Virus record (IMG/VR): IMGVR_UViG_2907128583_000005
Span: 96,001-160,000 of that record
DNA from: a virus
Lineage: Duplodnaviria; Caudoviricetes
DNA length: 64,000 nt
Direction: 5' to 3' (one strand)
Part shown: positions 395 to 53,309 of the stretch, one piece after another
How the letters are laid out: each line of letters begins with the position of its first letter
Position numbering within the stretch: the first letter of the stretch is position 1
Program-made: the position numbers and the translations under genes
The notes under the pieces: model-generated
Told to the model about the DNA's origin: nothing
What the model saw: only the letters and a program-made list of their open reading frames with translations
Databases searched by the model: none

Positions 395-429
395 AAGACT
401 TCTCCGATCTCTTAAAGTAGATTTTTACT

Positions 430-645
430 TTATGATTCGTTTTTAGTTCCTCTACTATATCTTGATTTAATCCACTCTAAAAAATTTCGGGATTGCTGAG
501 GATTATAAGCTTGCAAAAACTCATTTACACTAATTTTTAAAGTCTCTTCCAAATATTCTTGCAGTTCTTCGCGAGTAGTGTAAAAGTAAAATTCGCTATG
601 TTGATTCGTAGAAACTAACTGTATATCATATCTCTGCTCATTCAT
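430..645 (-). CDS. Hypothetical protein
   Basis: ORF with RBS, flanked by junction sites. Confidence 0.7.
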   Translation of the reverse strand: MNEQRYDIQLVSTNQHSEFYFYTTREELQEYLEETLKISVNEFLQAYNPQQSRNFLEWIKSRYSRGTKNES

Positions 646-712
646 GTTGTAGTCTCCTTGTTGTCATATAAATTGCATTAGCACAAAGTATATTTCGGAT
701 CAAAGTAAACTT

Positions 713-862
713 TTATCTGTTTCTAAGGATTGATTCAGCATAGGATAGGCTTTCTTGTACATTCCCTGCGACTTCTCCAGATAGAACTTTTTTAAATTGA
801 ATTATGACCCATTCTAAAGCATCATAGCACTCTTCAACCATATGCTTGTTCTCGTTCTGCAT
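713..862 (-). CDS. Small hypothetical protein (49 aa, not in ORF track)
   Basis: MQNENKHMVEECYDALEW..., GGAGG RBS, TAA stop lies in the arm of site 700-715. Confidence 0.6.
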   Translation of the reverse strand: MQNENKHMVEECYDALEWVIIQFKKVLSGEVAGNVQESLSYAESILRNR

Positions 863-904
863 ACCTAAGCCTCCATTCTTAGTAAAAGAAAGATTTTAAT
901 TGGA

Positions 905-1114
905 TCAGTCAAATGCGTTTTCTTCATCTGAAAAATATTTGCGATTTTTTCCAGTGGCCTTCTCAAGGTCACGAATGTTAACCATAATATGATTTGAGTA
1001 ATGAGGGATTTCAGTCATTTGGTCTAAGATAATGTACAAATTCCTTAATGTTTCTTCTGCCTCGACCATTCTTCCTTTGTTATACCCCAACACATAATCC
1101 GTACTTGTGCTCAT
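905..1114 (-). CDS. Hypothetical protein
   Basis: ORF with GGGGAG RBS between junction sites. Confidence 0.7.
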   Translation of the reverse strand: MSTSTDYVLGYNKGRMVEAEETLRNLYIILDQMTEIPHYSNHIMVNIRDLEKATGKNRKYFSDEENAFD

Positions 1115-1152
1115 ATTATCTCCCCATTTCTATGTAAAAGGAAAATTTGATT

Positions 1153-1404
1153 CTATTTTTCTTTTGGTTTAATGTTTGCAAGGTAAACAATCAATACTAG
1201 ATAAAATAAAGAACATATCCATGCCAACACTGGACCTTCTTTCCAAGGAGACACGTTATAGATAAAATTAAAAGGCAAAGCAAATACGACTATCAGTAGA
1301 ACTACAAAAACAAATTTTATAAACAATGTTTCTTTTCCCAATCTAATGGTGCCACGTAGATAGAATAGAGCAACTAGAAATATAAGAACCTGAATCCAAG
1401 GCAT
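1153..1404 (-). CDS. Small membrane protein (about 3 TM)
   Basis: Hydrophobic segments. Confidence 0.7.
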   Translation of the reverse strand: MPWIQVLIFLVALFYLRGTIRLGKETLFIKFVFVVLLIVVFALPFNFIYNVSPWKEGPVLAWICSLFYLVLIVYLANIKPKEK

Positions 1405-1440
1405 TTTTTATATCACTCTTCCCGTAAAATGTACGATTTA

Positions 1441-2471: not shown

Positions 2472-2484
2472 GGAATCCTCTCCT

Positions 2485-2961: not shown

Positions 2962-3260
2962 TTCACTTCCCTCTCACTTTTTGATGAAGTCGCTTATCTT
3001 TTGTTAAATTCATTCTATCCCACTGATACTATTTAAATAAAACTCACATTTTATCAAGATTAGATTCAACAGCTTGCTTTCTCGACTTATAGTTTGAATC
3101 TGCACTTATAGAAGTTCTCCAATAATTAGATTCTTTCCATACATTCATGACATGTTTATCATTAACGTACACAATATATCTATTTTCTGAAAACTTCTCC
3201 AACCTGTATTTCAAAGCAAATACACCTCGCTAAATAAAAGATTCGTTTTACTTTCTATTT

Positions 3261-4079: not shown

Positions 4080-4109
4080 TTTAAAGGGAAGCGAATTTCT
4101 GTAAAAGTG

Positions 4110-4895
4110 TTATTTTATTGCGCGCTTCCTATCGATAATACTTCCCATAAGTTGCTTAATACCAATAAACATGACAAGACCGAATGTGATTGGCGATACA
4201 CACAACGACCTCCAAAAATATATCTTACTATTGTACCAATTGAATGTTTTTTCTATATTCGCTTCACCTGTATAATCATCTTCAATTACTATTGCACCAT
4301 CAATAGGTCTAATAAATATTCTGTTCATATCTACGTTCATTGGATTAATTATTATCTTATAGTCTCTTGGATCTGATTCGCTATAATGAGAGTACCAGAA
4401 AGAGTTAAATTTAGGTTCCTTGTTTTCATCAGTTCGAGAAGGGTGAAACCAAACAAATTTCTTAGTTGCATCACTGAATTTAAAATTGTAATTTGAACGT
4501 GCGCTACTATTTGCAATCAATCTAATTATCCCAGTTCTTTCAGCCTCTTCAATTTCGTAAGGAAATAAGTGGTCGGTATAATGTATTAAATTCCTTCCAT
4601 TCAATTTTTCATACTCTTCTTTTGTGATCCGTCTTATGTAATATCTCGATTTCAAAGGATAGAGTAAAGGAACAAGAACAAAGTATCCTATGTACGGGAT
4701 TATGACAGAGATGATACTGGGCAAACCGGGTATAATACCTTCAATCCAAATAGATATCAATAATGCTAAAATCAATAGTATTAGCGTATAAAGTAAAATA
4801 GTGACCAATTGTAATGCATGTCTGATTCTACCGATTTTCCCACGCAATTTTTTTCTTACTTTTCTTTGCGTCATCTCCAATATTATCACCACCAA
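4110..4895 (-). CDS. Membrane protein, hypothetical
   Basis: Two N-terminal TMs, soluble domain, C-terminal TM. Confidence 0.7.
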   Translation of the reverse strand: MVVIILEMTQRKVRKKLRGKIGRIRHALQLVTILLYTLILLILALLISIWIEGIIPGLPSIISVIIPYIGYFVLVPLLYPLKSRYYIRRITKEEYEKLNGRNLIHYTDHLFPYEIEEAERTGIIRLIANSSARSNYNFKFSDATKKFVWFHPSRTDENKEPKFNSFWYSHYSESDPRDYKIIINPMNVDMNRIFIRPIDGAIVIEDDYTGEANIEKTFNWYNSKIYFWRSLCVSPITFGLVMFIGIKQLMGSIIDRKRAIK

Positions 4896-6262: not shown

Positions 6263-6298
6263 TATTATGTATTCTCCTATCTTGGTAAAACGATGCTT

Positions 6299-6586
6299 TT
6301 ACTTGCTTTTAACTTCTGATAGCTGCTGAACAAATCCTTCGTGTTGGCTGATTGTTTCAAGTGAAATATCTACATCGTATAATTTATTTTTCACTACCTT
6401 GAATGTTTTGTCTGAGCTAATAATAAATCCATTTTTTTGACCATCTTCATCTGTAAACACCATAATATCTCCCTTACTCGTCCTGATCGTTTCAATATAT
6501 TTTTGGTCGTAATATGTCTTATAACTTTTTTCGCATCCCATCAGAATTAAAACTAAAGATATAGCAATAAACATTTTAAATTTCAA
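6299..6586 (-). CDS. Putative lipoprotein
   Basis: Lipobox-like LMGC after signal peptide. Confidence 0.7.
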   Translation of the reverse strand: MKFKMFIAISLVLILMGCEKSYKTYYDQKYIETIRTSKGDIMVFTDEDGQKNGFIISSDKTFKVVKNKLYDVDISLETISQHEGFVQQLSEVKSK

Positions 6587-7154: not shown

Positions 7155-7192
7155 CCTCCTTGCAATCTATTCCTTCTAAAAGCCCAATTTTA

Positions 7193-8060: not shown

Positions 8061-8273
8061 CTCTTTCTTAAAAATCTAAAATCTCTGTAACGTTACAATT
8101 AAAATAAATGACCCCATCATTAAATAGAAATATGTTTTATGAGAGAATTTTGACTCGTTAGTGAAACTTATGAGGCGACAAGGTAGATATAATATTGCCA
8201 GCGCCGCCAACATACCCAAAGCAGTATTAAGATAAGAAATTAGAATTTTTTGTCACCCTTTATATTAAAATGT

Positions 8274-8474
8274 TCATTTTATCATTTCTTTTAGATCTGC
8301 CACAATTTCTTTGTATGTATACTCCCTTTCCAATGACCTAATCGAATCAATGGAATGAGGTTTAATGGGTAGACCTCCCCACTCATCTGGAACCATCACA
8401 GGATTTCTAAAAGCCTGTTCCGTAAGAATCTTTTCTTCATAGACAACTATCAACTTACTTAACTCTTCTTTCAT
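8274..8474 (-). CDS. Hypothetical protein
   Basis: Stop inside the spacer of site 8266. Confidence 0.65.
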   Translation of the reverse strand: MKEELSKLIVVYEEKILTEQAFRNPVMVPDEWGGLPIKPHSIDSIRSLEREYTYKEIVADLKEMIK

Positions 8475-8527
8475 CCTTCTCGTCCCTTCTAAATCAAATA
8501 TGTATTTGATTTGATTTTAATTGTTTA

Positions 8528-9179: not shown

Positions 9180-9234
9180 TTATGCTCCGTTTTTCAAGCT
9201 CGATATTTTAATGAAACACGCATTTTACACCAAA

Positions 9235-9916: not shown

Positions 9917-11179
9917 TTATTTACTGAAGCAATCATTAGTGCTCTCACGGATTCTTTTAATTAAATCCTCGCCCTTTTCTTCGTCCCATTGATTTAAATA
10001 AATACACTTCCAACCCAAGCAGTATTTTTTCTTCTGGTAGATTTTTAATTTTTGAACAAGTTTGTAGTAAGTCATCCCATGTTCTCTACTCGTATTAACT
10101 CTTACTTCATCAATTTTTATCATGTATCGTTTACCATCTTCGTTCCAATACTTCTTATACATCAATTTCCTCCTTCTTAGAAAAAATATTCAGTAAATAA
10201 TCTTCATATATCGATCTAAACGCCTCTTCTTCCTGCTCCCACAAATTTTCTGAGACATCTATCCCATATCCAGCATTACATCCTTGTCGGAAAAAATAAC
10301 AACATAACTGCCTAAAATCATCTTTTTTTATGTATGGCATATTTTACGGCTCCCATTTATAAAGCTCATATTTATCATCTGTCAATTTATAAAAATCGGA
10401 ACTATAGTCTCCCGAAAACTTTTCATTCAGGAAATCAACAATAGCGTTGCCATAGTGCTCACTTACATTCTCACAAACTAATTTGTCACTCACTGATTCC
10501 CTGTCAAAATTATCTATGCAGACAATCTTCATTCTAATTCCTCCAACGCTTCCTCTAAACTTTTAATTTCGCCCCAACCATATTTATAATAAAAGCTATG
10601 GTGATTATCATGACTATCTATGTATAACTCATAGTAATCTTCGCCTTCTTCGTTGCATCCATTCACCCACCATATATCCATGTTTGGGTCATTTGTTCGC
10701 TCTCCTACCATGTGCCTTGTGACATCTGGCAATCTTTTTAACTCAATAATCATATTTTCTCCTCCTTATAAAACGTGCCTTTTACTGAAACAGTTTAATG
10801 AACTCCTCTTTCTTTGCGCTTGCTTCATTCTCCAATTTTACTAATTCAGAATTTCTTCCCCAAGATGATAACACGATAGTCATCGCGCTCGTTTCTTTAT
10901 TTACTTGATCGTTAAACATTTTTATTATTTTCTTGTATTGAGCTTCTGATATTTTTCTCATTGTTCAACTCCTTATGAAACAGACCATCAACTATTCTTA
11001 ATTAAGTTTACTTTATTATCAATAAATTCAATCGTTCTCTCAAATGCTGAGTAATCTAAGTTGTTCATTGTTTCTTCTTGTAACTCAAGTAAAGTTTCCT
11101 TAATAGCTTTGTAGTGTTGAAGAATCATTCTCTTTTCGTTGACTTGTAGTTTATTATTATCGAAGCGTCCCATACCCAA
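9917..11179 (-). CDS. Run of small hypothetical ORFs (9917-10165, 10155-10340, 10344-10532, 10529-10753, 10988-11179)
   Basis: Abutting or overlapping co-oriented ORFs. Confidence 0.6.
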
Positions 11180-11212
11180 TTCTCCCCTTTCTTAATAAAA
11201 GAACTCTTTTAG

Positions 11213-11569
11213 CTAATTTCTATGATCGATTGTCCAAACAACTTCCTTATGATTGTTACTTTGAGATTGAAATTTCCATCCATTGTTTGTCATTTCTACG
11301 GCGTGTTGAAGATACTCTTCATAATTTTCATATTCATAAGTTTTAATTTCATACAGAAGCTTTGGCAAACTGCTTTCCTCCTCTATACTTTCTTTTTTCA
11401 ATTGTATAACTTCAGAATGATTAGCTTGCTTGCTAATTAGCGACTCTGGAATTAAGTATCCTCTACAAATCGGACATTTGTCATAATCAAATACCCACTT
11501 CTCCCCACAGCCCTCATAGTGAGATAGATGGAATAAATGCCTCTTGGGTACTCCAATACAGTGATACAT
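11213..11569 (-). CDS. Zn-ribbon hypothetical protein
   Basis: GAGGTG RBS before MYHC; CPIC motif. Confidence 0.6.
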   Translation of the reverse strand: MYHCIGVPKRHLFHLSHYEGCGEKWVFDYDKCPICRGYLIPESLISKQANHSEVIQLKKESIEEESSLPKLLYEIKTYEYENYEEYLQHAVEMTNNGWKFQSQSNNHKEVVWTIDHRN

Positions 11570-11616
11570 TTTACTCACCTCTTTTTTTGAATTGATATGT
11601 ATCTTTCCATAAATCA

Positions 11617-11663
11617 ATTATAGCATCCATCTTGTTTGATATCAATATATTTCATTATTTTTG
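11617..11663 (-). promoter_or_regulatory. SigA promoter TTGATA-N17-(TG)TATAAT with upstream operator-like motif
   Basis: -35 at 11640-11645, -10 at 11617-11622, motif TTCATTATTTTT at 11651. Confidence 0.75.
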
Positions 11664-11675
11664 CTTATTTAAATA

Positions 11676-11702
11676 AAAAAAACCTCCATTAAAGGAGGCT
11701 TT
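11676..11702 (-). terminator. Rho-independent terminator
   Basis: GCCTCC-TTTAAT-GGAGGT followed by T run. Confidence 0.7.
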
Positions 11703-11705
11703 GCA

Positions 11706-12218
11706 CTAACTAATACGCAAATGCTTTTTATCTGTCACTAATTCAACACCTTCAACAACTTTACCCTGTTTTACGGCAGCCAATAACCCCTTGGTATCAA
11801 TCTTATCGGGTTGCGGAATTCTGTATGTATTAGGAATAGCTCTTTCATTCACAATATTAATGGATGGAGGATTCTTTTGTAGTCTAACTTTAAATAGACC
11901 TGCGTCTATCTTGTCAATTTTATTTACTTCTAGCACAGCTTGAGTGTAGCTCTTTAATCCTTCTATTTTGTTCTGAAGGTATTTGCGTTTTTTTGCAAGT
12001 CGATCTTCTTCTTCTTTTAAGGCTTTGATATCTCCCTCGATGTTTTTCATGAACTTAGCGATATTCTCTGCCTTATTACTAATCTCATCTTCAATAGATT
12101 CTAGTGTCTCAATGTACAGTTGCAAATCATCTTCCGTTAAATCGTCATTGTCCCACGCAGAATCTACAAAATTGTTAAATACTCTATACTGCTCCCCAAG
12201 CTCATATAACTTACTCAT
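11706..12218 (-). CDS. Siphovirus Gp157 family protein
   Basis: MSKLYEL..., KAENIAKFMKNIEGD, LQKNPPS, KHLRIS. Confidence 0.9.
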   Translation of the reverse strand: MSKLYELGEQYRVFNNFVDSAWDNDDLTEDDLQLYIETLESIEDEISNKAENIAKFMKNIEGDIKALKEEEDRLAKKRKYLQNKIEGLKSYTQAVLEVNKIDKIDAGLFKVRLQKNPPSINIVNERAIPNTYRIPQPDKIDTKGLLAAVKQGKVVEGVELVTDKKHLRIS

Positions 12219-12393
12219 ACTTTATCATCCTTTTGTATGTATTATGGTAAAATCTATGTTTTATACTAGTAAATAGTAACAAAACTTTTCCTTGCTATAT
12301 ATTTTTATTCATATTATACTTTTTCAGTAAGTTTTTTTGGGAAGTAATGCTGGCCAGCTTACTATATAACCCCAATATCAAGGAGGATATACT

Positions 12394-14100: not shown

Positions 14101-14291
14101 CATGTTGTTTTTGTTCGACTTAGGAAGAGTGATCCTTTTTCCCAGCTTTTTGAAAGATAGACTTTAAAAGAATTAAAACTTTGTTGTATAATCTTGACTC
14201 AATAAAAGTCCTCTTTTATACAATTACTTGTGCTTTATTTAATGAGAAGTCTATAATATAAATACTAACTCTCACTAAAGGTGGTAACTTA

Positions 14292-14735: not shown

Positions 14736-14772
14736 GGAGCGGTCTGTAAGGCTGCTCTTTTTAATCAAATTT

Positions 14773-14976
14773 CTATTTGATTAGATTCAAATAAATAGAA
14801 CAAGCTAGAATAAAAGCTACAATATCGTCGATAGTTCTAGGTGTGATTGTGCCATAAAATATTTTTTCTGCAATCGTCCATAGAAGACCTATCACGCAGT
14901 AAATTACCAATACATTAATAAAATCAATGATAAAAAGAAGTGTGCCAGTAAAAAAGTTAACCAAGAATATAACCAC
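14773..14976 (-). CDS. Small membrane protein
   Basis: Hydrophobic ORF. Confidence 0.6.
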   Translation of the reverse strand: MVIFLVNFFTGTLLFIIDFINVLVIYCVIGLLWTIAEKIFYGTITPRTIDDIVAFILACSIYLNLIK

Positions 14977-15032
14977 TCCTTTCTAAGCAATTAGCATTGC
15001 TTCTATTTGCTTCAACTAAAATTGCGATTTTA

Positions 15033-15824: not shown

Positions 15825-15857
15825 TTTAGCATTTCCTTTCTATATAAAATTCTTATT

Positions 15858-16352
15858 TCACAGTATTTTTTGGTTAGATCTCCACATTAAATCCATGTAT
15901 CCATCTTGACTATCAATTCCCCAATCTTCAAAAATCGACTCTACTGTTTCTTCCTTTGATATGACTATGAATAAATCTCCAAGTTTACCTATGTATGTTT
16001 TTTGAGCTTCGTTTGAATAATCACTTTCACCTTCCCAATGGACATATATCTCATCCTTTGAGTCATCATCGTACACAATATCGATAACAACAATATCACC
16101 ACTAGTAAGACGGTCAAAGGTGTTTTGTTTAAAACCTTCATCTTCCACACCAAACACTTGATAGTCTGTATTTGCATTTTTATTAACAACAATTGAAAAA
16201 GTATCGCATATATCCATAAATCTAATGTCGCCATAATGTCGAATAATGCTTTTTCTAACATTAGTAACACTAAAATTTCCTATGTATTTGGCATCAATCG
16301 ATAAAGATTCACAATTCTCTAAACCAAACAAAATCTCTTTTAATTTCTTCAT
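15858..16352 (-). CDS. Hypothetical phage protein
   Basis: Long ORF with RBS. Confidence 0.7.
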   Translation of the reverse strand: MKKLKEILFGLENCESLSIDAKYIGNFSVTNVRKSIIRHYGDIRFMDICDTFSIVVNKNANTDYQVFGVEDEGFKQNTFDRLTSGDIVVIDIVYDDDSKDEIYVHWEGESDYSNEAQKTYIGKLGDLFIVISKEETVESIFEDWGIDSQDGYMDLMWRSNQKIL

Positions 16353-17151: not shown

Positions 17152-17375
17152 TTGTACATTCCCCTTTCAGTGTAAAAGTTTCATTTCATCGTGTTTCTGT
17201 TTGTTCTATCTTCAAACGACTATTCAAATGACCACAGATCTTACATCTTTTTTCATGAGTGAACCAATTTCCTTCTTTGACTTCAAGCAATTCGTATTCA
17301 TGCTTATGATTACTTTTTTTAGTCGGCATAATGCCCTCCATTTCAAAACCCTATCATTATGAAATGCTGATTTCA

Positions 17376-17753: not shown

Positions 17754-17822
17754 CTCTCTCTGACTTTTGAAGCATATACTCTCACATATTTGTCTTTATT
17801 CTTGATCAAAGATCGATTTTAT

Positions 17823-18014: not shown

Positions 18015-18177
18015 ATAAATCTCTCCTTTCCTGATGAAATATCAATTTCACACACGATATAATTTAATTTTAATATGTTGTTCACATTATATTCACTATC
18101 GTTACATTTATTTCAAACTATTGTTTACTTATGGTAATTTTTTCTCTATGATAGATCTGTATCCCAAATAAGAGAGG

Positions 18178-18501: not shown

Positions 18502-18596
18502 TATTTAAAACTGTATAAGACCTCCTTGAGTATTTTTATATATTTGAGGAGGTTTTAACCTCGCATATTTGTTGAAGTTACATTTCATTAAAATCT

Positions 18597-34742: not shown

Positions 34743-34796
34743 GAATTAATACTCCTTTACTATTCGCATTAATATTGGACTAATCAAACTTGCATT

Positions 34797-35951: not shown

Positions 35952-35989
35952 TTTATTCTGGGTCTCCTCTCCATTATGAAACATGCCTT

Positions 35990-36355
35990 TTACCAGCTAC
36001 CAGAATACTTGTTCACCGTTATAGGATAATGATATATCTCAATATCCTCATCGATAAAACCTCTCCGCTGAGCAGCTAACAACGTTTCATGCATGTTCTT
36101 GCGTCCCACAGGGTTGTCTGTATGTAAATATATCTTATCAGCCCTCAATCCATGTTCACAGAAGTACTTCACCAAGTCATATCCGTTAGGCAGTTCTTTA
36201 CCATCTACGTCCTCTCCCAAATCATGGTCTAACGTAAGAATGCCGACACTTTTGGTTTCAAGGATATGTATTGCTTCATAGTATGTACGAGCCACCACAA
36301 AGCCATCTGGACAGTCTCTAAGATCGTCAACATACAGGTCAATCTTATCAGTCAC
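35990..36355 (-). CDS. Cyclic-phosphate-processing receiver-domain protein
   Basis: LYVDDLR, LDHDLG, GYD, HTDNPVGR. Confidence 0.8.
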   Translation of the reverse strand: MTDKIDLYVDDLRDCPDGFVVARTYYEAIHILETKSVGILTLDHDLGEDVDGKELPNGYDLVKYFCEHGLRADKIYLHTDNPVGRKNMHETLLAAQRRGFIDEDIEIYHYPITVNKYSGSW

Positions 36356-36386
36356 AGCTATGCTCCTTCCCTGTGAAACACATCTT

Positions 36387-36758
36387 TTACTTTAACTCAA
36401 AGGTATCCAATATAAATTTAACTTCGTCTGCTGAAATTGAAATTATTTTTCTCACACCTTCAACCTTTTCTTCTTCGTTTGCCATGATTACAACTATTCC
36501 TGTAAGTTGTTTGCCTTCAATCTCAATATTTGGTCTTTTGTCATCACTTAAAGCAGTAGGTACTGAGTGTACACTTAGACTTGTTCCTTTGATTGGCATT
36601 CCAATCGGATGGTTTCCTATAATTTCAGCTAGGCTATTAATGTGATTATCCATCCATCTAACATCAAATCCCAAGTCAGGATCTAAGACCATTATTCTTG
36701 TTTTCTCATAAACAGGTTTTTTCTTCTTGAACCAATTCATTTTCTTACCACCATTCAC
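36387..36758 (-). CDS. Hypothetical protein
   Basis: Stop in site arm. Confidence 0.6.
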   Translation of the reverse strand: MNGGKKMNWFKKKKPVYEKTRIMVLDPDLGFDVRWMDNHINSLAEIIGNHPIGMPIKGTSLSVHSVPTALSDDKRPNIEIEGKQLTGIVVIMANEEEKVEGVRKIISISADEVKFILDTFELK

Positions 36759-37139: not shown

Positions 37140-37185
37140 ATGAGTACCTCTTTCCTTAAAATATTTTCAAGGTAAAACAGTCATT

Positions 37186-37808
37186 TCACACAAATTGAAT
37201 TGAGATTCCGTCTTCAGTTGTCTGAACGCTCACTGTTAACTCAACCAATTTATTCTCTTCTATCCTCTTTAGTATTTGTACTTCATCGTGTGTAAAATTT
37301 CCATCAATGAAGAGCTTAAACCTGTCCTGTCTCTCTTGAAGTTCATCTGCAAGGTATTCGTTTATTCCTTTTACTAAATCTTCAATTTTGTCCATCTTAT
37401 CAATCATTAGAAATTTATCTTCTAAATAAAGCATTCCCTTTGTGACAGGAACACCTTTATAATCAAAGAAAATATCACCTTTTTCTTTATTGAAGATCTC
37501 GGCCATTGCTATATTCTTTGTTGCTTTTCCTTTAACCAGTCTCATGTCTTCATCTCCTTATAAATTAGTTATTTCACGTAAATCTCTTTAATGTCAGTTG
37601 CTAAAGTTCCAATTAATAGTATCATATCTCTTTCTGTTAGTTTTTTATTTTCTTTTAGTAAGCTTAATATATTTTGAACGCATTCTTCAACCTTCATATC
37701 CTTGTAGTGATCTTGAGCCTTTTCGAGTTTTTCAATGGCTTCTTTTGCGTCATAAGATGCCATTGACATTCTAGCAAACCCCTCCAGAACCTTATCCTGT
37801 GCATTCAT
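37186..37808 (-). CDS. Two hypothetical ORFs (37186-37545, 37569-37808)
   Basis: Each bounded by junction sites. Confidence 0.65.
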
Positions 37809-38103
37809 ATTGTTACTCCTTCATTTTATGAATAAAATAAACCTTTTACTACAACATAATATATTGATTGCCATCATCCATGAAAGCCACCAACAATGAC
37901 TTCCTTTTAATAGTCCTAGCTTGAAAGGCGACAATGCGTGAAACATCTACTTCCATTTCCTTTTTAGTTGCTTCGTCGTATACGAATATCTTCTTTTTAT
38001 CCTGACTCATTCTGTATCACCTCTGCGCAATAGCGCAATATTCTTCAAACTCTACAATACTATGTTACTAGTTTCTTTACAATGTTTGCCTATCGATAAA
38101 TAA

Positions 38104-38148: not shown

Positions 38149-38753
38149 GTTTATTAAAAAGACCACATTAACGTTATCTTTATTATGTATGTTTCAATAT
38201 TCTATGTTGTTCATATTGTTTCGCTGCTTCTTGTAATTCGATCCACTTGCCCTGATCATTCCTAACATACAGCTTATTATCTTTTAATGCCCCAGCTTTA
38301 AACATAATGATACTCACTCCCCGTTAAAGAACTATAGATGTTCACATTAGCAGAAAAAATACTCCAGTGATAGAAACGATCAATCAATACAAAACTCATT
38401 GCTTCTTTGGAACGTCCAGCGGTTTCGATTTCTTCTTTTACTTTTCCATCTACAACTATCATATATGTATCCATCTCAAATTCTCCTTTTATTATATTTT
38501 TATTCGTTAGACAGAGGTACTACTTGTTCCGTTGCTTCTGTAATATCTTCAGCATCATGCCAATTCTCAAACTTGACAGCTAGATCTACGTCATGCGTAT
38601 ATAGTTGACCGCGCTGTTCTTCCCAATCTGCTCTAAGGTATTTCTTCGTTTCTGTATTAATTACTGTAAACATATTTATTCCTCCGTTGTTATGTGAATT
38701 ATAGTTATTAAAAGACTTATTTTATCTGTAACATTTCCCTATTGCTGATAACA

Positions 38754-39505: not shown

Positions 39506-39550
39506 GTTGCGACTTTTGGTCGCTTCTTTTTTTGTTATCAAATACTTCTT

Positions 39551-42500
39551 TTATAAATAATCTTGATAGTTAGCAATGGCTTGATTTTTTCGTTTTGATA
39601 GCTCAAGTAACAACAATTCGTAGAGTTCGATATTTTCACGTAGTTCAAAGAAGTATTCAAAATCGTCATTCTTTGGGTTCTTATCTTGTGCTTCAATTAA
39701 TCGAAATACCTTATCAATGATCTCCATAAACTCTTCATGTTCCATCTCACTTAAGCGACTCTTAACATCTTCGTAATTCTTCCTTCGTTTCTCATTAATA
39801 TTCATTCGATCATCTCCTCATAAGAAACACTTCTATTCACTAAGAATATTATTTATTTTTATTTTCAATTTATCTTCAAGTTCATCTGTTAATCTAGAAA
39901 TTGAACGAAGTGAATCCATAAAATCTTTGTCTAATTTATCCTCAATCATTCCTTCAGCCCTCTTCTTTACCATATCCTCGAATTGTCCACCAATGTGTTC
40001 GAATACTTTAGCTAATGGCAAGTCTACTCCATTGATAATTAATTTTGCTTCCATAGATGAAGGATCATATCCTTTTTGATATAAGGGACTGTTTTTACCT
40101 ACTGCACTTAACGCTTCAATAATAAAATATCCCGTCCATGAATCGATACCGTGTTCCCATAAATCAAATTTGCTCATCTAATTTCTCCTATTATTTCATT
40201 GTATATCAGAATCTTCTATAAATTTTCCAACGAAAAACATATTGTCTTTCTCTTCTTCAAAATCACTTTGGTAATAAACAATCGGTGAATTATGTAAGTC
40301 CGTTATCTTATATTGTGTATCACTGTACCCATAACCATCAATGCTTTCACTTTTGATCAAAAAGAAGCGATTCTTATAAAGGTATAGATTAGTTCGTTCA
40401 ATGTTTCTTTCTTCTGAGGAAAAGTATCCAACAAAAGTGAGTTCATCGCACATCATTTGCTGCTCAAGTTCCTTAAGAAACTCAATCAATGTTTTAAGAC
40501 CATAGTTCAATGTTATTTTCGCATTAATAATATCGCCGTTTAATGTAATAAAATCATCATGCCCACATCTAGGCAGTTTGGAAATTTCATTATTAACTTT
40601 TAGTACCTTATTCTCTGTCATTCTAAGACTTAACTTGACTTGTGAATACATTGACATTTTTCTCATCATCCCTTTTATTCTTATAAAAGAATCCTTTTAT
40701 CAATACTTCCGAGCAAAGATAATTACACAATCTTCCTCATTGAATCCTTCCAATAATGACTGAATATGAAATCCTCTATCATCTTCTCGCTTAGAATTAA
40801 CATTAACAAAAACATTCTTTTCAGAACTAGCTCTATAAATTGCTGGACTGTCATCAAAAGTTCTATCTACTGAATACTCAACTTGTTTCATCTTTCACAA
40901 TTCTCATCTCCTTATAAAATCAATCATGCTAATTCACTAATATCCATCGATCATTAGCATCATCATACACGAAAGCAAACACACCTATCGTAGACTTCAC
41001 ATTAACAAATCGACTATTGGCAATTTGCCTTCCCGCTTCTTTTGTCAACCTGAGCATAAAGAAATTCAAAAACTTCACATTAGAACAAGCAAAGACATAA
41101 TCTACTGTTTCAGTAAAGTCTAAATTTTGATCTAGTGTAACTAGATCCTCAAAATTTACTAACGATGGAACAGCAAAAGTTATATATGAATCGTATTTAT
41201 TATCAAGAATCATCTTTTGATCTGGACTCAACATTGCGCCTTCATCTATAAATACTTTTGCTTTCAATGAATTCACCTCCAGTATAATGAAAATAAAATA
41301 ATCTTTTTACTGACTTTCAAGATCAAAACAAATGCTGAGTAGCTCTTTAGTGCCAATTCTTTTCTTAACTCCATCTTTAGTTATAAAGAATCCTGGTTTA
41401 TCGCTATTCTCTGTAACTTTTATCCCTTGTTCTTTTGCCAGATTCATCATTTTCTCTATATCAGCTATTTGTATCACTCCTATCTTTGTCTCCTCGTAAA
41501 ATATTCATTTGATCAGATATATTTCAAAATTTTTGTACTGACTTCAGCATGAGGATTTTGCGTGAAGATCTTCTTCGAAATTTCAGTAGCTTTCTTATGA
41601 AGTTCGGTTAAATCACCACGGATTCCCATTCCGCCGTTATAACACTTGCCGTTAGCGTATACGAACATAATAAACATTTTTAATTTCACTCCTCATAACA
41701 AATTACTTACTGTACTTATCAATCATAGCTCCCATAGTTGTACGAGCTTCTTTGTACGTCATTATTACCTGTGGCTTACCCTCGGCCTCGAATACATATT
41801 GATATGGCTTCCCATTGTTCGTTTCGGTATTAGTAAATGTTCCTTGAAATATGTATTCCTCACCATCAATACCAAAACAGCAGCCAATGAACTTTTCAAA
41901 CCATTGTTTCCTTTGGGACATTTTAAATCACTCCTTATCAGAAGATCATTTCACCCATTTGGGTAACAATAAATCCTTATACTCTTCAACAGAATTTTCT
42001 ACAATCATCTTTGCCTCATCCACAGCTTTTATATATTCCTCCTCTTTATTGTGATACAAAAATACATAGCCACTCGTTTGTCTACCCAATAAATATTTTT
42101 TAAACTCATCTAATGTTTTGCACCTTTTTCCTGACTTCACGTACATAGCAAACAATTCTCTTTTCAAGTTTATCGCTCCTTACCTAGTATCTCTCACATA
42201 TTCTTTAAGCCAACGGTTTTCATGATTATAAATAGCAACAGCAGTAAATTGACCAGTCTGAACTAATTTTTTTGCGACTCTAGTTGCTTTTAGCAAGCTA
42301 TCGTTCAACATTTTATCTTTTACTTTGTTGCCAAAAAGATAGCATTCTAATCTGAACAATTGCCTTCCTCCTTCCATTGTAAAAGGATCATTTTATATGC
42401 TCGTAAAACTGTTCTGGCAAAGTTCGGGAATGCTCTCTCCCCATTATAAAAGGATATGACCACTCTTCAAAGTTGATGTAGATTCTTCTTTGTCCATCAA

Positions 42501-43231
42501 CTTCGATGCATTTTGCTCCAGCAAACTGATAAGTATTTTGAATTAATCCTTCTTTTCTCATATGACTGAGAACTTCCAAAAGTATGTTTTGTTCGATTAG
42601 GATTTCTTTAGACATCTTTGCTACCCCAACTTTCTTTATAAAAATATAGTTTTATCTACTCATTGATAATTTCATTGATTCGTTTAAGTTGGTCTAGCGT
42701 CAGATCTAACTTACCAAAAGCATTAAATTTCGATCTAATGTCACGCTCTAACTTTTGAAATTCTTGTTCGTCTAAGATTTCTTGTTTGGAAAAGTATAGT
42801 TTCCAATCGGCAGTATAGCCACCAGTTTCTTGCTCTTTGTTCTCCATTTTAAATTTTACTCCATCTACCTCAAAGTATTTCCTTCCCACCTTTGTTATTT
42901 TCGATTCTTTAATAAGTAGCTGATCCTTATATTTAACAGCCATATTTCCGACAGCTTTTAGATATACCTTATCTCCTATGTTCATTTGTTTTATGTCCCC
43001 CAATAATTAATGATCTAGTTTAGTATTCAACGTTTCAATCTCATTGATGAGTTGCACATATCTTGAAGTTATTCGTTTTATTTGATTATGTATTGCAATA
43101 AAGTCTAGACTATCATAATCTCTTCGGCTCCTAACTGATTCAACTAATTTTTCAAGTGTATTTTCTACATCTCTTTTCTCCATAGCCAGCATGCCTACAA
43201 TATAAATCGCCGTTCCTGATAGGCTTTTCAT
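39551..43231 (-). CDS. Run of small hypothetical ORFs (39551-39805, 39833-40177, 40196-40669, 40700-40891, 40929-41276, 41307-41468, 41703-41921, 41946-42167, 42180-42377, 42388-42615, 42656-43003, 43007-43231)
   Basis: Co-oriented, RBS-bearing, many bounded by junction sites. Confidence 0.6.
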
Positions 43232-43567
43232 CTTATTTCATCCTCTCTTAGTGTTATGCTGTTTTTTGTTTTGTGTTTAGAGTGACTACAACCATTACGC
43301 CATCAGCTTCACATAAAGCGGCAAACTTAGCCATTACTATTTTATCATCGAACGAATATGTATTCGCCTCTAATTTACCTAACACCTTCTCAAAAACAGT
43401 TACTTTATACATGTAATCACCTCATATTTGTTGTTTTTCATAAATTAATTATACTACATTTATTTATTTTTGTATATAGGTTTTATATAATTTCATTATA
43501 TTTAATTATAAAAAAAGACCGCCTAAGCGATCTTGGTCAAATTAATCTTTTATAAGGAGTATGATAA

Positions 43568-46084: not shown

Positions 46085-46624
46085 AAACCTACCACTCCTT
46101 ATGTATTTTTATATTGTAAAATTCAACTTTTACGCACTTCTCGTTCTTCATAATAATATTCTAGATAAGGTTTATCTCGATTGTGATCATCACAAAATGC
46201 CTTTGCTGCTTCTTCACTTTGAAAAATATCCACCAAAACCCTATTGACGCTGAAGACATACGCTTCTTCTGCATCCTCAAGTACAACAAATACTCTCATG
46301 CATACTCTCCCTATATTCTAATAAAATAAATCAATACTAATTTAACGCTTACCAACGCATCCTCCTGATCTTTCTTATAACTTCTCTTTATGATTTTTTT
46401 GATTTGTGCTGCTGCATCATTTCGCGCATACGATCCATTCCCACGCTTTTTGTTTTCTCTGTACTGGAAGCATAATCAATAAATTCGTTATAGCTTTTAA
46501 AATCCAACTGAGCAACTGTGGGACGTATTTCCTTAATTTTTACTTCTTTCAATTTAGTCCTTCTTTCTATGTATTGATGATAAAAGTCCGTTTTTATCAT
46601 GAAGATACCTTATATTTTAATAAC

Positions 46625-47485: not shown

Positions 47486-47536
47486 TTTGTCTCCTCCTTA
47501 ATTTGTCAAGAGTAAAATAACTGTTTCATCATCTAT

Positions 47537-47803: not shown

Positions 47804-47832
47804 CTCCTTAAAAAATCCTGCTTTTACTATAA

Positions 47833-48579
47833 TTAATTCCTGATGTACTTTCGCAGCATTTTGCTAATTTGATCTTCTTTACATAGGCCTTGAACCAGCA
47901 GTCTTGCTCCTGTCCCCGCTTCAACTGACTTAATTTTTGTGATATACATTTTCTTCCCCTCGACATCGATCAAATCACCAACAGATACCTTATCGGAGAC
48001 CATAATATCGAAGCTTACTGATTTGTTATTTTTCATCTGTGAACTCCTTATAAAATACTGTTTTTACTCAAAAAATTTCACATCTTTTTCATATGATGCT
48101 GCCGGGATCGATCCAACATTTGATTTGATAACTTCATAATCGTATTTATGCTCCCAACCATCTTGAAACATTATCTTTCTATGATTTTTTCTCTCCTCTT
48201 TACTGTTATATTCACAATCTCTTGTTATGAATTCTGAAACGATTTTCATGTAAAGCATCCTCCTTTAGAAACTCTATAGTTTTTCAATTTTCCCCATCAT
48301 TATACTCTTTATATCTTTGTAGCCTTTATTTTGTTTTATTGAAACAATGGTTTCTTTACTCGAAGGATCATCGAAGATATAAGCAACAACACCTTTATAT
48401 GATCTACTTCCAACTACTTCAATCTTTACATTATCACCAATCTGTACGCCGTATTTTTTAAACCTCTCATTGCAAATCCCAACAACTTCCGATCTATATT
48501 CTTCATAATCTTGTCCCTGCTTTGGTGCTTGCTGTACAAACCATTGTCCTGAGCCGATTTCAATACTCTCATTATTCAT
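47833..48579 (-). CDS. Three hypothetical ORFs (47833-48036, 48064-48258, 48274-48579)
   Basis: RBS-bearing, junction sites. Confidence 0.6.
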
Positions 48580-48731
48580 AAATTTCTCCTCCTAAAATTT
48601 CCATATATTTTTTTGTCGTATGCTTTATAGTTCCATTTATTTATATTTATTTCTTATAAAATCGTTGTTTTAATTGGTTACAATACATTGTTTCTATCTC
48701 CCGATACAGTGTTGCTTTCTTTGTTAAAACT

Positions 48732-49905: not shown

Positions 49906-50082
49906 TTATTTATAAGATTCAATCAATTTCTCCAGTTTCATTATTTCAGGTTTTTGTAGTGGCTGCTTATCATTAATAAATAGCGAGAACAATGAATTAC
50001 TTATAGATAATTTACTAGCAATAAATGATTTCTTAATTCCTCTTTCACTAATTAACTGAAGCGTTCTTTCTCTTAGTGTCAT
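49906..50082 (-). CDS. Small HTH protein
   Basis: GIKKSFIASKLSISNSLFS; GGAGGTG RBS. Confidence 0.75.
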   Translation of the reverse strand: MTLRERTLQLISERGIKKSFIASKLSISNSLFSLFINDKQPLQKPEIMKLEKLIESYK

Positions 50083-50126
50083 GCACTCACCTCCGTTAAA
50101 ATTTATTTTAATGTTCTCTTGAGATA

Positions 50127-50171
50127 AGTATATCATTCTGTTTCTACTCTGTCAATATATTCATTATATTT
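50127..50171 (-). promoter_or_regulatory. SigA promoter TTGACA-N17-(TG)TATACT with operator-like motif
   Basis: Motif at 50160. Confidence 0.7.
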
Positions 50172-50267
50172 AGTTGTTTAATATATAATGATGTTACTCT
50201 CAATAAAAAAGCGCTTGAGATATTAACTCAGCGCTTCTTATTAGTAAAAGTAACAATTTATCAATCT

Positions 50268-50942
50268 CTATTCTGTGAACATCCAATCCTTAGTCACCCA
50301 TTGAATAACCTTAGCAAATCTATTTTCATCGAAATGAATAAATTCTTTATTATACCATTCGGTTAATTCCTTATCATGTTTACTACTATTGCATTCTTTA
50401 CAAGCTGGAACACAGTTGTCAATAAAATTGCTGCCTTCGTGAATAACATGATCTCTATGTAGTTGTTGTCCATTAACTGCGAAATGTATTTCTTGAGTCA
50501 TATCGCAATAAGCACATTTCCATTCAAAATACTCTAAACATCTACTCCACTCATCTTGGGTGATTTCATGAGACTTATTGAATCTTTTCTGTCTATAGAG
50601 TTTTAATTTATCCTTATTTTTTCTTTGCCACTCCCGCAAAAGTCCATTTTCTCTTCTTTTTTTCTCAGACAGTCGCCTTTTTTCTTTATTCTGAGGCTTA
50701 TCATTTCTTTTCTTTTGGAATGTAAGGGTCTTTTCATAATTTTCTTTGTTCCATTTAGTTGAGTTACTAATATTGCATTGCTTGCATTTTGGATTTAGGC
50801 CATCTTTTTTATTGCTCAGGTTTTTATAGAAATATATTTCATTGCAAGGGTACCACTGATTACAATTGGAACATAATTTTTGTTGTTCGCTTTCAAAAAA
50901 TCTATGACTATCTTCAAAACTTATTCGCTTTCTATCTCGCAA
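50268..50942 (-). CDS. HNH endonuclease
   Basis: CAYC...DHV...N..PACKECNSSK. Confidence 0.9.
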   Translation of the reverse strand: MRDRKRISFEDSHRFFESEQQKLCSNCNQWYPCNEIYFYKNLSNKKDGLNPKCKQCNISNSTKWNKENYEKTLTFQKKRNDKPQNKEKRRLSEKKRRENGLLREWQRKNKDKLKLYRQKRFNKSHEITQDEWSRCLEYFEWKCAYCDMTQEIHFAVNGQQLHRDHVIHEGSNFIDNCVPACKECNSSKHDKELTEWYNKEFIHFDENRFAKVIQWVTKDWMFTE

Positions 50943-51029
50943 ACCAATTATTCTCCCTTTTTATAAATTAAAATTTTATATAAAAAAACAAAACCAAACC
51001 TCTTTTAGCTTGTTGGTTTTGTATATTAC

Positions 51030-51461
51030 TTAAAGCTTTCCTTTTTTCAATTTTAATTTATTTTCTCGAGTCAATACATACCTTTTACTTGATGTGTTAT
51101 TGCTTCCGTCCAGAACAAAAGCAACTAACGATACTCCAAAAGCCACAATCGTTGAATAGTTTGATAGTAGGTTTATATCTAGAGTTTTTTCAAACTCACC
51201 AGTGTATAGCAGCATAAAACTACGTGAAATCACTGCAATCATGATGAGAATACATAATATTGTAACACCTTTATAAAACTTTGTAGCTACCTTTCTCAAC
51301 AAGGCAAAGAGTAGTATCATGAGCGAAACAATAAAAGAAAAAACAGTTATTACAGACGATATAAATGGTGAAACTTCAATTTTAAAGAAAATCACGACAA
51401 TTCCATAAACTATAAAAATAACTGCAATTAATAATAACATACCATGATAAATATGCTTCAA
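51030..51461 (-). CDS. 4-TM membrane protein
   Basis: Hydrophobic helices. Confidence 0.65.
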   Translation of the reverse strand: MKHIYHGMLLLIAVIFIVYGIVVIFFKIEVSPFISSVITVFSFIVSLMILLFALLRKVATKFYKGVTILCILIMIAVISRSFMLLYTGEFEKTLDINLLSNYSTIVAFGVSLVAFVLDGSNNTSSKRYVLTRENKLKLKKGKL

Positions 51462-51845
51462 GAAAATCTTCCTTTTTGTAAGTTTAGAATAGTTTTATTG
51501 TGAGCATGTCACCCATTAAGTTATGTATACATTTTAGTATAGTAGATATATCTACATTATTTCAATCATGTATTTAGATTGCATTGCTACGCATTGGTTT
51601 GTACGGTACATGTATGAGAGAAATTGAATGAGTGTTGATCTTCAGATAGTACAGTTCTTCAGCATCAAGTTTCTTATTGATTTGCTTCACAATTTCTCAA
51701 TTTTCATTAAGTATATTCTCCCATCAAAGCAATTTTATAATTATACATATTTATGAATTAAAATATCATTAAATGCGAGTTTTATACATTTATTATTGAA
51801 TATTAATACATTTGTAACTACGTAAAACAAGAATTTTATGCACAA

Positions 51846-53309
51846 TTAATTTATTGAACAATCATATAAATTGTTCATATAGCGCATTGTTGCGGTTGCT
51901 ATTTTTCTATCTCCTTCTGTAGGATAAACTTTCCACTCTATTCCAAAAATAAAGCCATTATCATTACCTTTTTTTACTTCCTCTTCTATTACTGAATCAA
52001 TTTGTGCAAAAATCGTTTTACTAGTAACGGTGTCCGAATGTACATGTATTACGTTTACTTTGTCAACCAAATAATCATAAATTGTCTTAAAACCCTTCTT
52101 TGCAACCAGTAAATTAATAGTTAATTTCAAACCTTTTTTTGTTTCTGATATACGTGCTGAATAGTCTTTAGTTGACCATCCATACATTCTCAATATCTCT
52201 TGTTTTGCTGATTTTAGTAATATTCTTGCTTGATCTTTATCCGTTATCATGCTTATTCCTCCACATTCATATCTTTACTTTTTAAGGCTATGAAATCACT
52301 CATTTATCAACACTGATCATTAGCACCTAACCACCTGTTATAGACGGTTAACGCTCTAGGCTTAAAGCGTATTAAATATAAGGTGAGAAATGTACAGAGG
52401 CATATTCTTTCGTTTCCCCATTATCATTTTCTATGATTAAATTTTTCGTTTGACTAATGTCTTTTATTTGATAGGCTTTTCCTACAGTAAAACCAGCCCA
52501 TTCGATACTCCAAGAAGCAAGCACAATATCGCCTTTGCCCCTCAAATAGTCTTTAACAGTGCAACCTATTCTTACTTTCATTTTCATTCCTCCAATACTT
52601 ATAAAATGAGTATTTTACAAAGTCCTATTGTCTTACAGATAAACGATAGACCCCGTTTTAGATCATGCCTCGATCTTTCAGCGATTTTTCTAGTTTCTTT
52701 AATTCGTCGAACTTTTTAGCATACATATCATTGAAAGCTACGTGAATTATTGAGTTTTTAGCTTCCAATCTGTAAAACTCTTCTACTGCATCAACTAAGT
52801 TCTTGTACATAACTATGAAAAGGCGGTAGTCATAATCTTTGCCCTCACATTTTTTGAGTGTTTTATTAAAATTAATACCCATGTGAGATAATTTAATTCT
52901 TATATCCTCGCTCATACCCGCTACCTCCCGCGTAAGGCCGCCGACTGCTATGTATTAACTTACCTTATGAATTTATTATAACACATCATTTCATTATATT
53001 CAATAGTTTAATTATTTTTGTATGTTGAATTGTGATTATTCTCCTTCTCTACGTCGAACAGTTCCTTGTAAAATATCAGTTTTATAACCCTTTAGACTCA
53101 ACATAGGCGTAATACTCCTCAAATGATTTATGACCTCCATGCTGCTTATATTTTATGTATTGTTCCAACACAATTTGATTAAATTGTTTTAGAGTTAATT
53201 CAGCAAGATCTAAGTTCCCCTGTAAATAGCTCCAATATAGCCGTGATACGCCAGCAGGCTTTCTCTGAGGTTTATTCTTTCTCATGTAATCACCAACTTT
53301 CCTCCCCAA
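51846..53309 (-). CDS. Hypothetical ORFs (51846-52250, 52372-52587, 52658-52915, 53082-53309)
   Basis: RBS-bearing, junction sites. Confidence 0.6.

Follow-up and report, generated by a model that had tools for sequence, protein, structure and literature searches.

Palindromic sites with position-specific 6-bp centres at the early-gene junctions of an SPbeta-like phage: candidate joints for position-by-position gene exchange

Why should a phage carry one short palindrome at dozens of gene junctions, each copy around a different 6-bp centre? The question is raised by a stretch of 64,000 nucleotides (nt), here called the window, which comprises bases 96001-160000 of the 218,271-bp virus record IMGVR_UViG_2907128583_000005 (G000) and in which an interrupted palindrome of the type TAAAA-N6-TTTTA recurs between small genes. 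A sequence-only reading of the window had taken these sites as the boundaries of integron-like gene cassettes. We find that their centres are unique within a genome and conserved by position between relatives, and we favour, with just better than even confidence, the view that the sites are heterospecific recombination joints at which genes would be exchanged position by position. By its gene content the source is an SPbeta-like phage, since it encodes MrpR-like, DndB/YopQ-like and YopP-like proteins; named phages share only ~26-30% identity with its MrpR-like protein.

The relaxed form of the motif, TNAAANNNNNNTTTNA, has 63 matches in the window, against 12.53 ± 3.85 in 100 dinucleotide shuffles, the largest of which gave 23 and none of which reached 63. 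Of the strict form, TAAAA-Nk-TTTTA, there are 30 copies at k = 6, compared with 0-4 at each other k from 0 to 15, so that the abundance (about 57 copies by manual count) and the fixed spacing claimed earlier both hold. Indeed, among all 5-mer palindromes with spacings of 0-12, scanned de novo across 50-155 kb of the genome, TAAAA-N6-TTTTA was found 56 times where 2.1 copies are expected, and the runner-up palindrome was enriched 4.3-fold. The 182 intergenic segments of the early region (+12 nt; 16.4 kb) hold 72 sites, against 2.7 ± 1.5 in per-segment shuffles (maximum 7 in 300). Under a crude gene model 27 of 99 copies lie inside open reading frames (ORFs), which partly reflects over-long ORF starts and partly chance matches. 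The sequence-only reading had itself proposed a comparison with shuffled sequence and of intergenic location, and both came out in its favour: the enrichment of the motif, its 6-bp spacing and its location at minus-strand early-gene junctions are confirmed.

Within the window, 60 of the 63 matches lie in 412-53084 and none between 25181 and 33806, while the three beyond 53.1 kb (54404, 54741 and 62278) are at about chance level. The earlier description of two junction arrays around an empty core at 25.2-33.8 kb is therefore right for the window; the ends it gave to the arrays are not, as these run over ~50-155 kb of the record. That is where nearly all of the 61 strict and 114 relaxed copies of the whole record are found. 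Small minus-strand genes with 31-35% G+C occupy ~50-160 kb of G000, and large plus-strand genes follow from 160 kb on. Bases 1-50000, with 39-45% G+C against 31-38% in the remainder of the record, have almost no sites and could belong to the host flank or to a separate module.

Read on the coding strand, the consensus is R-TAAAA-N6-TTTTA-Y; of 99 sites, 86 have the R at −1 and 80 the Y at +17. The palindrome described earlier stands, and its length becomes 18 bp instead of 16 bp. Information is limited to ~6 bp per arm, with none outside R-TAAAA/TTTTA-Y, and the two arms are alike. In the 76 sites with at most one arm mismatch, the stop codon of the upstream ORF falls in the arm's first three bases (17 sites), directly before the site (8), in the centre (6) or 4-12 nt before the site (12), and 33 sites have no nearby stop of an ORF of at least 40 codons. 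All 11 stop codons previously assigned to an arm agree with ORF ends and site positions. A Shine-Dalgarno (SD)-like pentamer is present downstream of 48 sites and starts within 10 nt in 20 of them. Pairing between positions 6/11, 7/10, 8/9 and 0/17 is at shuffle level, that is, shows no hairpin covariation. The pairing excess at positions 2/15 is due mainly to A-T pairs, and among the 43 non-A/T pairs there, 27 changes are one-sided and 9 two-sided. Judged by covariation, the copies behave like a symmetric protein site and not like a hairpin.

The centres carry the main evidence. Relatives were found with the AAA_24/Sak4-like protein encoded at 22329-23507 as query, which gave five proviruses and one further contig; contig L006, a 100% identical match to a 395-amino-acid (aa) protein, was used for the motif count only. 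Identical 6-bp centres recur in colinear order at 43 window sites in the relative G004 and at 39 in G001, whereas chains with permuted centres reach ~11 (maximum 15). In G002, to which blastn aligns no more than 5.3 kb of the window's 64 kb (74% identity), 23 of 23 identical-centre pairs are colinear. At least one relative supplies a partner for 29 of the 30 strict sites in the window and for 47 of the 63 relaxed ones. The DNA between consecutive shared sites is often unrelated, with neither nucleotide nor protein similarity and with differing lengths (19 of 42 intervals in G004, 14 of 38 in G001 and 12 of 22 in G002), and some internal sites have unrelated DNA on both sides (6 of 41, 6 of 37 and 5 of 21, respectively). 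In 22 of the 23 G002 pairs, exact identity reaches only 0-3 nt past the 16-mer. When sites are paired by flank and arm alone (flanks ~79-85% identical), all six bases of the centre are identical in 17 of 19 pairs with G004 and 19 of 23 with G001, and the exceptions look like wrong pairings.

Within a genome, on the other hand, no centre is repeated: the same or an inverted centre occurs in 0 pairs against 7.3 expected from column-wise shuffles, counted over six genomes (G000, SPbeta, Perkons, Tsamsa, E3 and phi116), and the earlier statement that all spacers differ is borne out with 0 duplicates. The one 16-mer common to SPbeta and the window (site 25165) is within chance, with ~0.5 expected by estimate. 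The arms are the more variable part at one pair of positions, as positions 2 and 15 often differ between relatives. In the G002 pairs, position 2 is A, G or C in 10, 11 and 2 cases, against 16, 2 and 5 in the window. Strict counts over whole records are 50 in G001, 5 in G002, 12 in G003, 51 in G004 and 12 in G005, with controls of 1-3. G002 nevertheless has 86 relaxed copies (control 21), mostly with arms TGAAA/TTTCA, and its centres are unchanged; the arm change in G002 is, as aligned here, symmetric.

From these features we infer arm binding, strand exchange, a need for matching centres and the kind of enzyme involved. A dimeric recombinase would bind the arms R-T(A/G)AAA and TTT(T/C)A-Y, and strand exchange across the 6-bp centre would proceed only with a site of the same centre. 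Two crossovers would then replace the gene or genes between two sites, with no internal homology needed and with gene order kept. Given such a requirement for matching centres, co-resident SPbeta-like genomes would cross over only at equivalent junctions. Furthermore, each site overlaps or directly follows a stop codon and is separated by only a few bases from the ribosome-binding site (RBS) downstream, so that each exchanged unit would bring its own translation start. Heterospecific joints of this kind would account for the symmetry of the sites, their unique centres, the conservation of the centres across unrelated genes and the kept gene order.

The point at which homology between relatives ends also bears on this reading. 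In a region shared with contig L007 at 88-93% identity, each of the five downstream block ends coincides with a site or falls a few bases beyond one; the other four block ends have a clear site in only one or the other genome. Window sites with partners in G001 and G004 are involved. Homology stops just past TAAAATTCTTATTTCA (15845-15860, with a stop codon in the arm), divergence starts right after TAAAAGTTTCATTTCA (17173-17188) and TCAAATACAGGTTTTA (19931-19946, stop in arm), a block ends at TAAAATCTTTATTTTA (18589-18604), whose 16-mer also occurs in G005, and a 484-nt one-gene insertion begins 7 nt past TAAAATCTGTCTTTTA (22300-22315). A 91% block at 11190-12263 has TAAAAGAACTCTTTTA (11196-11211, partner in G004) at one end and TAAAATCTATGTTTTA (12248-12263, partners in G004 and G002) at the other.

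A further relative is represented by the public runs X15 and X17, which contain the same pieces and were counted as one. Of its 30 listed joint ends, 8 lie within 3 nt of a site, against 3.3% for random positions, and three more at 5-8 nt. Joints fall at the edge of TAAAATAAACCTTTTA (37833-37848, partners in G001, G004 and G002), TAAAATAATCTTTTTA (41294-41309, G001) and TAAAATTCAACTTTTA (46117-46132, G001 and G002), 1 nt from TCAAATACTTCTTTTA (39538-39553, stop in arm; G001 and G004), and 2 nt from TAAAACAGTCATTTCA (37173-37188, stop in arm) and TCAAATTAATCTTTTA (43537-43552), both with partners in the three relatives. A replaced segment starts 1 nt from TGAAACACATCTTTTA (36374-36389, stop in arm; G004 and G002). 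At TAAAATCGTTGTTTTA (48657-48672, three relatives) joints lie at 0 and 8 nt, at TAAAAATATAGTTTTA (42639-42654, G001 and G004) one lies at 6 nt, and X15 has joints 5 nt from TTAAATGCGAGTTTTA (51769-51784, G001) and 3 nt from the candidate site TTAAAATTTATTTTAA (50096-50111). Between SPbeta and phi3T, a site lies no more than 10 nt from 8 of 50 block ends, where random positions would give 1.9%. Breakpoints between relatives had been named as a check on the sequence-only reading, and homology does end at sites above chance in all three comparisons (L007, X15/X17 and SPbeta/phi3T), though not only there.

The motif extends well beyond the close relatives, as counts of strict sites, or of 18-base sites where so stated, indicate. 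SPbeta has 34 sites (control 2), phi3T 30 (control 2), Perkons 17 (control 2), Geobacillus E3 30 (control 7), Tsamsa 23 (control 3) and vB_BcoS-136 23 (control 6). In the 18-base form, there are 11 sites in a Staphylococcus SPbeta-like phage (control 0), 28 in Mammaliicoccus phi116 (control 1), 28 in PJN02 (control 0) and 14 in c-st (control 3). Two phages are motif-free: Sundance has 0 sites (control 4) and KKP_3916 has 2 (control 1), and a scan of both for other abundant interrupted palindromes of such kind found none.

This distribution was used in the search for a possible reader of the sites, in which the 354 ORFs of G000 were compared with five motif-bearing and two motif-free phages. 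The most likely reader, on these comparisons, is a YomM-like protein, a 333-aa member of the Pfam Phage_integrase family encoded outside the window at G000 184946-185947, in the tail module just before the tape-measure gene. It is 58% identical to its counterpart in SPbeta, 62% in Perkons, 60% in E3 and 52% in phi116, against 30-37% for the median protein shared with these phages; identity in Tsamsa is 31%. Among the motif-free phages, KKP_3916 gives no hit and Sundance only 25% over 95 residues (E 6.5e-6). A strict site, TAAAACTATCCTTTTA, lies at G000 185962-185977, 15 nt after the stop of the YomM-like gene, and is one of five strict sites in the 58-kb late region. The YomM-like gene directly precedes the tape-measure gene in virulent phages of the 949 group as well (L094 2914-3906, Lactococcus phage 949; L095 and L096). 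The YomM-like protein of G002 (L103-L106) is 89% identical to that of G000; site and reader could be changing together there.

A different enzyme had been put forward before, namely the tyrosine recombinase whose 3′ part is encoded at 63594-64000 on the minus strand (Pfam Phage_integrase 1.3e-19). The whole gene (G000 159594-160667, 357 aa) encodes a YopP-like protein that shares 29% identity with the SPbeta YopP region and with Perkons ORF64 and in which all six R-K-H-R-H/W-Y residues are present as read by eye. Its homologues also occur in both motif-free phages tested, Sundance and KKP_3916, so that the YomM-like protein tracks the motif better and the YopP-like protein is the weaker candidate. 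Next to its gene, at the switch from minus- to plus-strand genes, lies one whose product of 429 aa begins with a CoiA domain (1.1e-06; L019 2079-3368, G000 161079-162368). A second-rank candidate for the reader is the YopQ/DndB-like protein (28777-30111, minus strand; Pfam DndB 4.1e-12), with hits in four of five motif-bearing and none of two motif-free phages.

The MrpR-like master-repressor homologue (27795-28772, minus strand; Pfam MrpR_N_CB 1.2e-22, MrpR_C_cat 2.3e-11) had also been suggested as a binder of the sites, which does not agree with what is reported for SPbeta. There MrpR, a repressor with a recombinase fold, binds a different element, SPBRE, at ten promoters (PMC10516654, in the part of the article available). 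SPBRE, too, is an intergenic repeat of this phage family, and its reader has the tyrosine-recombinase fold; it differs from the sites in being limited to about ten promoters and in its unrelated sequence. We derived it here from the 260 nt before ten named SPbeta genes: an element of the type ATACAAA-A/T-AATATGTAT was present in nine of the ten stretches (that of yorM showed none), and only three of the ten MrpR promoters also carry a T.AAA-N6-TTT.A site nearby. MrpR as reader, and with it the identity of the motif with SPBRE, is rejected. Sundance (L050-L056) has 8 copies of AATAC-N2-GTATT against 0.3 expected; this resembles the SPBRE core ATACA...TGTAT and may be the MrpR-type operator of that phage.

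Extended to the family, exchange at heterospecific joints would amount to a natural cassette-exchange system in SPbeta-like phages, SPbeta included. In such a system a YomM-like protein would read dozens of sites with clade-constant 6-bp addresses, and co-resident phages would trade accessory and anti-defence genes at corresponding positions, with no need of homology and with gene order undisturbed. We put this full version forward tentatively, as a possibility that falls short of probable.

Several observations weigh against exchange at the sites. The breakpoint evidence is uneven: only 15 of 57 blastn block ends with G004 and 14 of 51 with G001 lie within 12 nt of a site, block ends being a noisy proxy at 70-80% identity, and the excess of breakpoints at junctions with the motif over those without is modest (odds ratio 3.0, p = 0.024 for G004; 1.7, p = 0.18 for G001). 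In the X15/X17 relative, about half of the replaced segments have a window site at one end only; for five of them the window shows none at the opposite end. Because the junctions are compact, a breakpoint that spares genes must fall near a site in any case, and we therefore give centre conservation and uniqueness more weight than breakpoints. Laboratory hybrids of SPbeta and phi3T (Hyb1phi3Ts-SPbeta, PP526179) crossed over within identical late-gene stretches of 3-18 kb, like ordinary homologous recombination, and these crossovers are uninformative about the sites. The conserved arms, at ~6 bp, are shorter than the 11-13 bp arms of Cre, Flp and Xer sites; in tyrosine-recombinase core sites each monomer typically contacts about 9-13 bp, and integron and lambda core sites have 7-9 bp.

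The proposed reader raises difficulties of its own. Aligned to XerA (4a8e) and XerD (5dcf), the YomM-like protein has Lys at the second catalytic Arg in G000, SPbeta, Perkons, E3 and phi116, while the Tsamsa and Lactococcus 949 forms retain the Arg. The Lactococcus 949 group has a YomM homologue of 34% identity but 7 strict sites against 2.3 expected, and the prediction that 949-group phages, which are free of MrpR, should be rich in the motif had a weak outcome, with 7, 7 and 10 sites against a control of 3. Conversely, Clostridium phage c-st has its 14 sites without a YomM-like hit. Finally, the compared phages are mutually related, so that counts of co-occurrence, those of YomM among them, are not independent.

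The main rival is an operator array, in which a dimeric DNA-binding protein would control or package the early region and swapping would be a by-product of site conservation. The protein could be the late-made YomM-like protein turned regulator, as MrpR is, in a stoperator- or silencer-like role. Cluster A mycobacteriophages offer a parallel, with ~30 repressor sites in short intergenic regions, although stoperators are asymmetric 13-bp elements of one sequence that are oriented with transcription and have no variable, address-like centre. The confinement of the sites to the early minus-strand region, with few in the late region, suits operators, as do their symmetry without hairpin covariation, their short and fairly constant distance to the RBS and the missing second catalytic Arg of the YomM-like protein; the related MrpR is itself a recombinase-fold repressor, according to the available part of PMC10516654. 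On the other hand, a free centre leaves the absence of repeated centres unexplained, an operator gives no reason for identical centres while arm positions 2/15 and both flanks change, and SPbeta has sites after the last gene before a terminator, too (for example 92394 and 116415). We consider an operator array unlikely, at roughly one in five in our estimation.

A second alternative dispenses with a dedicated enzyme and takes the 16-18 bp islands as linkers in the sense of Botstein's modular theory, short homologies used by phage annealing or recombination proteins or by host RecA. The islands of identity do coincide exactly with the sites, the phage encodes the AAA_24/Sak4-like protein, laboratory hybrids form by homologous recombination, and many block ends lie away from sites. 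Homology by itself, however, does not explain why the same palindromic arms recur at a fixed 6-bp spacing across genera, nor the symmetric arm change in G002, and 16-18 bp is, as a matter of general knowledge, short for efficient homologous exchange. We regard linkers as improbable.

Less probable again is a housekeeping role like that of Cre/lox, in which the sites would serve to circularise terminally redundant DNA or to resolve concatemers, unique centres would avert deletions, and exchange between phages would be a side effect. Cre/loxP has such a role in P1. Centres that are unique in each genome agree with this, and the recombinase gene lies in the virion module beside the tape-measure gene, here and in Lactococcus phage 949; the conservation of centres between phages and the restriction of the sites to early-region gene junctions would remain unexplained. 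An RNA-level signal (an AU hairpin, terminator, processing site or translational coupling element in polycistronic early transcripts) is very improbable: the sites do lie between stop codon and RBS and are co-transcribed with the genes, but the centre shows no pairing, a 5-bp A-U stem is marginal by general knowledge, and a loop would not need conserved centres, and we reject a hairpin or intrinsic terminator because compensatory stem changes are absent and those at 2/15 are mostly one-sided. Chance, that is, TAA stops and A/T-rich spacers in AT-rich intergenic DNA, where many sites indeed start with a TAA stop, deserves next to no credence, being refuted by the enrichment at 6-bp spacing only, by the per-segment shuffles and by 16-mers conserved in relatives.

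How would heterospecific joints compare with known systems? Tyrosine-recombinase core sites consist of two inverted arms around an overlap of 6-8 bp, a layout that the motif shares, being symmetric and enriched at the 6-bp spacing only. The closest likeness is to heterospecific lox/FRT cassette exchange, which also uses inverted arms around a short centre, pairs only partners of the same centre and swaps the segment between unlike sites in order. There the pairs are engineered, with 13-bp arms and 8-bp spacers, whereas here dozens of natural sites have ~6-bp arms and 6-bp centres, for which we infer the need to match. The pdif modules of Acinetobacter plasmids are likewise bounded by short inverted-arm sites with 6-bp centres that recur around different genes, but those sites are 28 bp long, with distinct 11-bp XerC and XerD arms and host enzymes, unlike the ~6-bp, similar arms and address-like centres here. 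Integrons share arrays of mostly single-gene units between recombination sites and a tyrosine recombinase. Their attC sites, however, are folded single strands of 57-141 nt and are interchangeable, so that cassettes reorder, and one attI lies behind a Pc promoter; the window sites are duplex-type palindromes of 16-18 bp with position-specific centres, in colinear order in three relatives, and no attI-like unique site was noticed. Thus the recombination-site reading proposed at the outset keeps its inverted arms and fixed 6-bp centre, to which unique, conserved centres and the ends of homology are now added, and loses its integron-like capture and shuffling: at 16-18 bp and without hairpin covariation the sites are not attC-like, and a fixed order points to allele replacement at fixed addresses instead of reordering. 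Nor is a Tn916-type tolerance of unlike spacers needed, as had been supposed, since partner sites in relatives carry the same centre. Phage integrons have been reported (PMC9892861, from the part available). The PeSL cassettes of T4-type phages are also short repeats that border variable early genes and are linked to modular shuffling, but they are described, in the available parts of PMC2839356 and PMC4122927, as promoter and terminator elements recombining by homology, whereas the present motif is a palindrome of fixed spacing without promoter or terminator features and with conserved centres of its own.

The remaining window sites, for which partner means an identical, colinear centre and to which no strand is assigned, fall into groups by the relatives that share them. 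Partners in all three of G001, G004 and G002 are found for TCAAAGTAAACTTTTA (700-715), TGAAAGTCATATTTTA (2294-2309, with the stop of ORF 2307-2504 in its arm), TCAAAGATCGATTTTA (17806-17821), TCAAACTTGCATTTTA (34784-34799, stop in arm), TAAAAGACTTATTTTA (38709-38724), TAAAAGAATCCTTTTA (40684-40699, unrelated on both sides in G001 and G002), TAAAATATTCATTTGA (41497-41512), TAAAAGGATCATTTTA (42380-42395, stop in centre), TAAAATAACTGTTTCA (47513-47528) and TAAAATACTGTTTTTA (48051-48066, stop in arm). G001 and G004 share TAAAAGAAAGATTTTA (883-898, both adjacent intervals unrelated), TAAAACGATGCTTTTA (6286-6301, stop in arm), TAAAAGCCCAATTTTA (7177-7192, its 16-mer also in G005), TGAAACACGCATTTTA (9212-9227), TAAAATTGCGATTTTA (15017-15032), TAAAAATTATATTTTA (33807-33822), TAAAACAAGAATTTTA (51823-51838), TAAAATGAGTATTTTA (52602-52617) and TAAAATATCAGTTTTA (53069-53084, stop in arm), the degenerate sites TAAAATGTACGATTTA (1425-1440, one arm mismatch) and AAAAATCCTGCTTTTA (47811-47826), and TAAAAGTATTCTTTTA (25165-25180) beside a tRNA-Met gene. 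G004 and G002 share TAAAAGGAAAATTTGA (1135-1150) and TAAAAGTCCTCTTTTA (14203-14218, both sides unrelated in G004).

Other sites have a partner in a single relative. For G004 these are TAAAAGTGTTATTTTA (4102-4117, with the stop of ORF 4110-4895 in its centre), TAAAATGTTCATTTTA (8266-8281), TGAAACATGCCTTTTA (35977-35992, stop in arm), TAAAAGTCCGTTTTTA (46581-46596) and the degenerate TAAAAGTAACAATTTA (50245-50260); for G002 they are TAAAACTCACATTTTA (3038-3053, unrelated on both sides), TAAAAGATTCGTTTTA (3235-3250), TCAAATATGTATTTGA (8494-8509) and TAAAACGTGCCTTTTA (10769-10784). Several matches are candidates only. Those at 412-427 and 34115-34130, TCAAATTTCTATTTGA (14765-14780, with the stop of ORF 14773-14976 in the centre), TGAAATATCAATTTCA (18035-18050) and the isolated match outside the arrays at 62278-62293 have no partner in the relatives compared. 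TGAAATGCTGATTTCA (17360-17375) has a counterpart in L007, recognised by eye, that is shifted and degenerate and has a similar centre. The candidate at 38476-38491 contains an RBS-like GGAG on the coding strand, and the centres of its partners differ. As a separate observation, an RNA run (X21) gave 14 reads, all on a 43-nt island at 43510-43553 that ends at the edge of site 43537-43552, and the reads continue into unrelated sequence on both sides.

The neighbourhood of the arrays has some further features. The tRNA-Met gene (25054-25130, minus strand) lies 35 nt from site 25165-25180, and in the phage collection it is closest at the DNA level to tRNAs from jumbo Escherichia phages; a near-identity search with 20 kb of the window against that collection gave tRNA-like matches only. 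Directly downstream of the MrpR-like gene, 26517-27053 encodes an AgrB-family protein (Pfam 1.7e-23). At 53321-56380 a 1019-aa protein is encoded. Over its C-terminal 225 residues it is similar (39-46% identity) to N6-adenine DNA methylases from phages of Vibrio and Pseudomonas, and its residues 343-644 match a Geobacillus E3 protein.

The literature searched, supplementary tables (which may list hybrid crossovers) aside, yielded no account of the motif or of what YomM does; the available parts of PMC10516654 and of the bioRxiv preprints 10.1101/2021.11.22.469490 and 10.1101/2020.05.06.055103 make no mention of the motif. The proposal can be tested, as the same sites occur in two Bacillus subtilis 168 phages, SPbeta and phi3T, that are easily crossed and engineered. 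For yomM, yopP and yopQ, orphan core genes, there would be a candidate role open to test. If the sites are only operators, they would form a family-wide regulatory layer that is undescribed in the literature searched. If they are joints, they would be a natural set of dozens of mutually exclusive sites, usable as a tool for multi-site cassette exchange. Exchange at such joints would also explain how large temperate phages of Firmicutes keep a fixed gene order while their early genes are replaced by unrelated ones, and it would put a definite molecular structure to the linkers that Botstein placed between modules.

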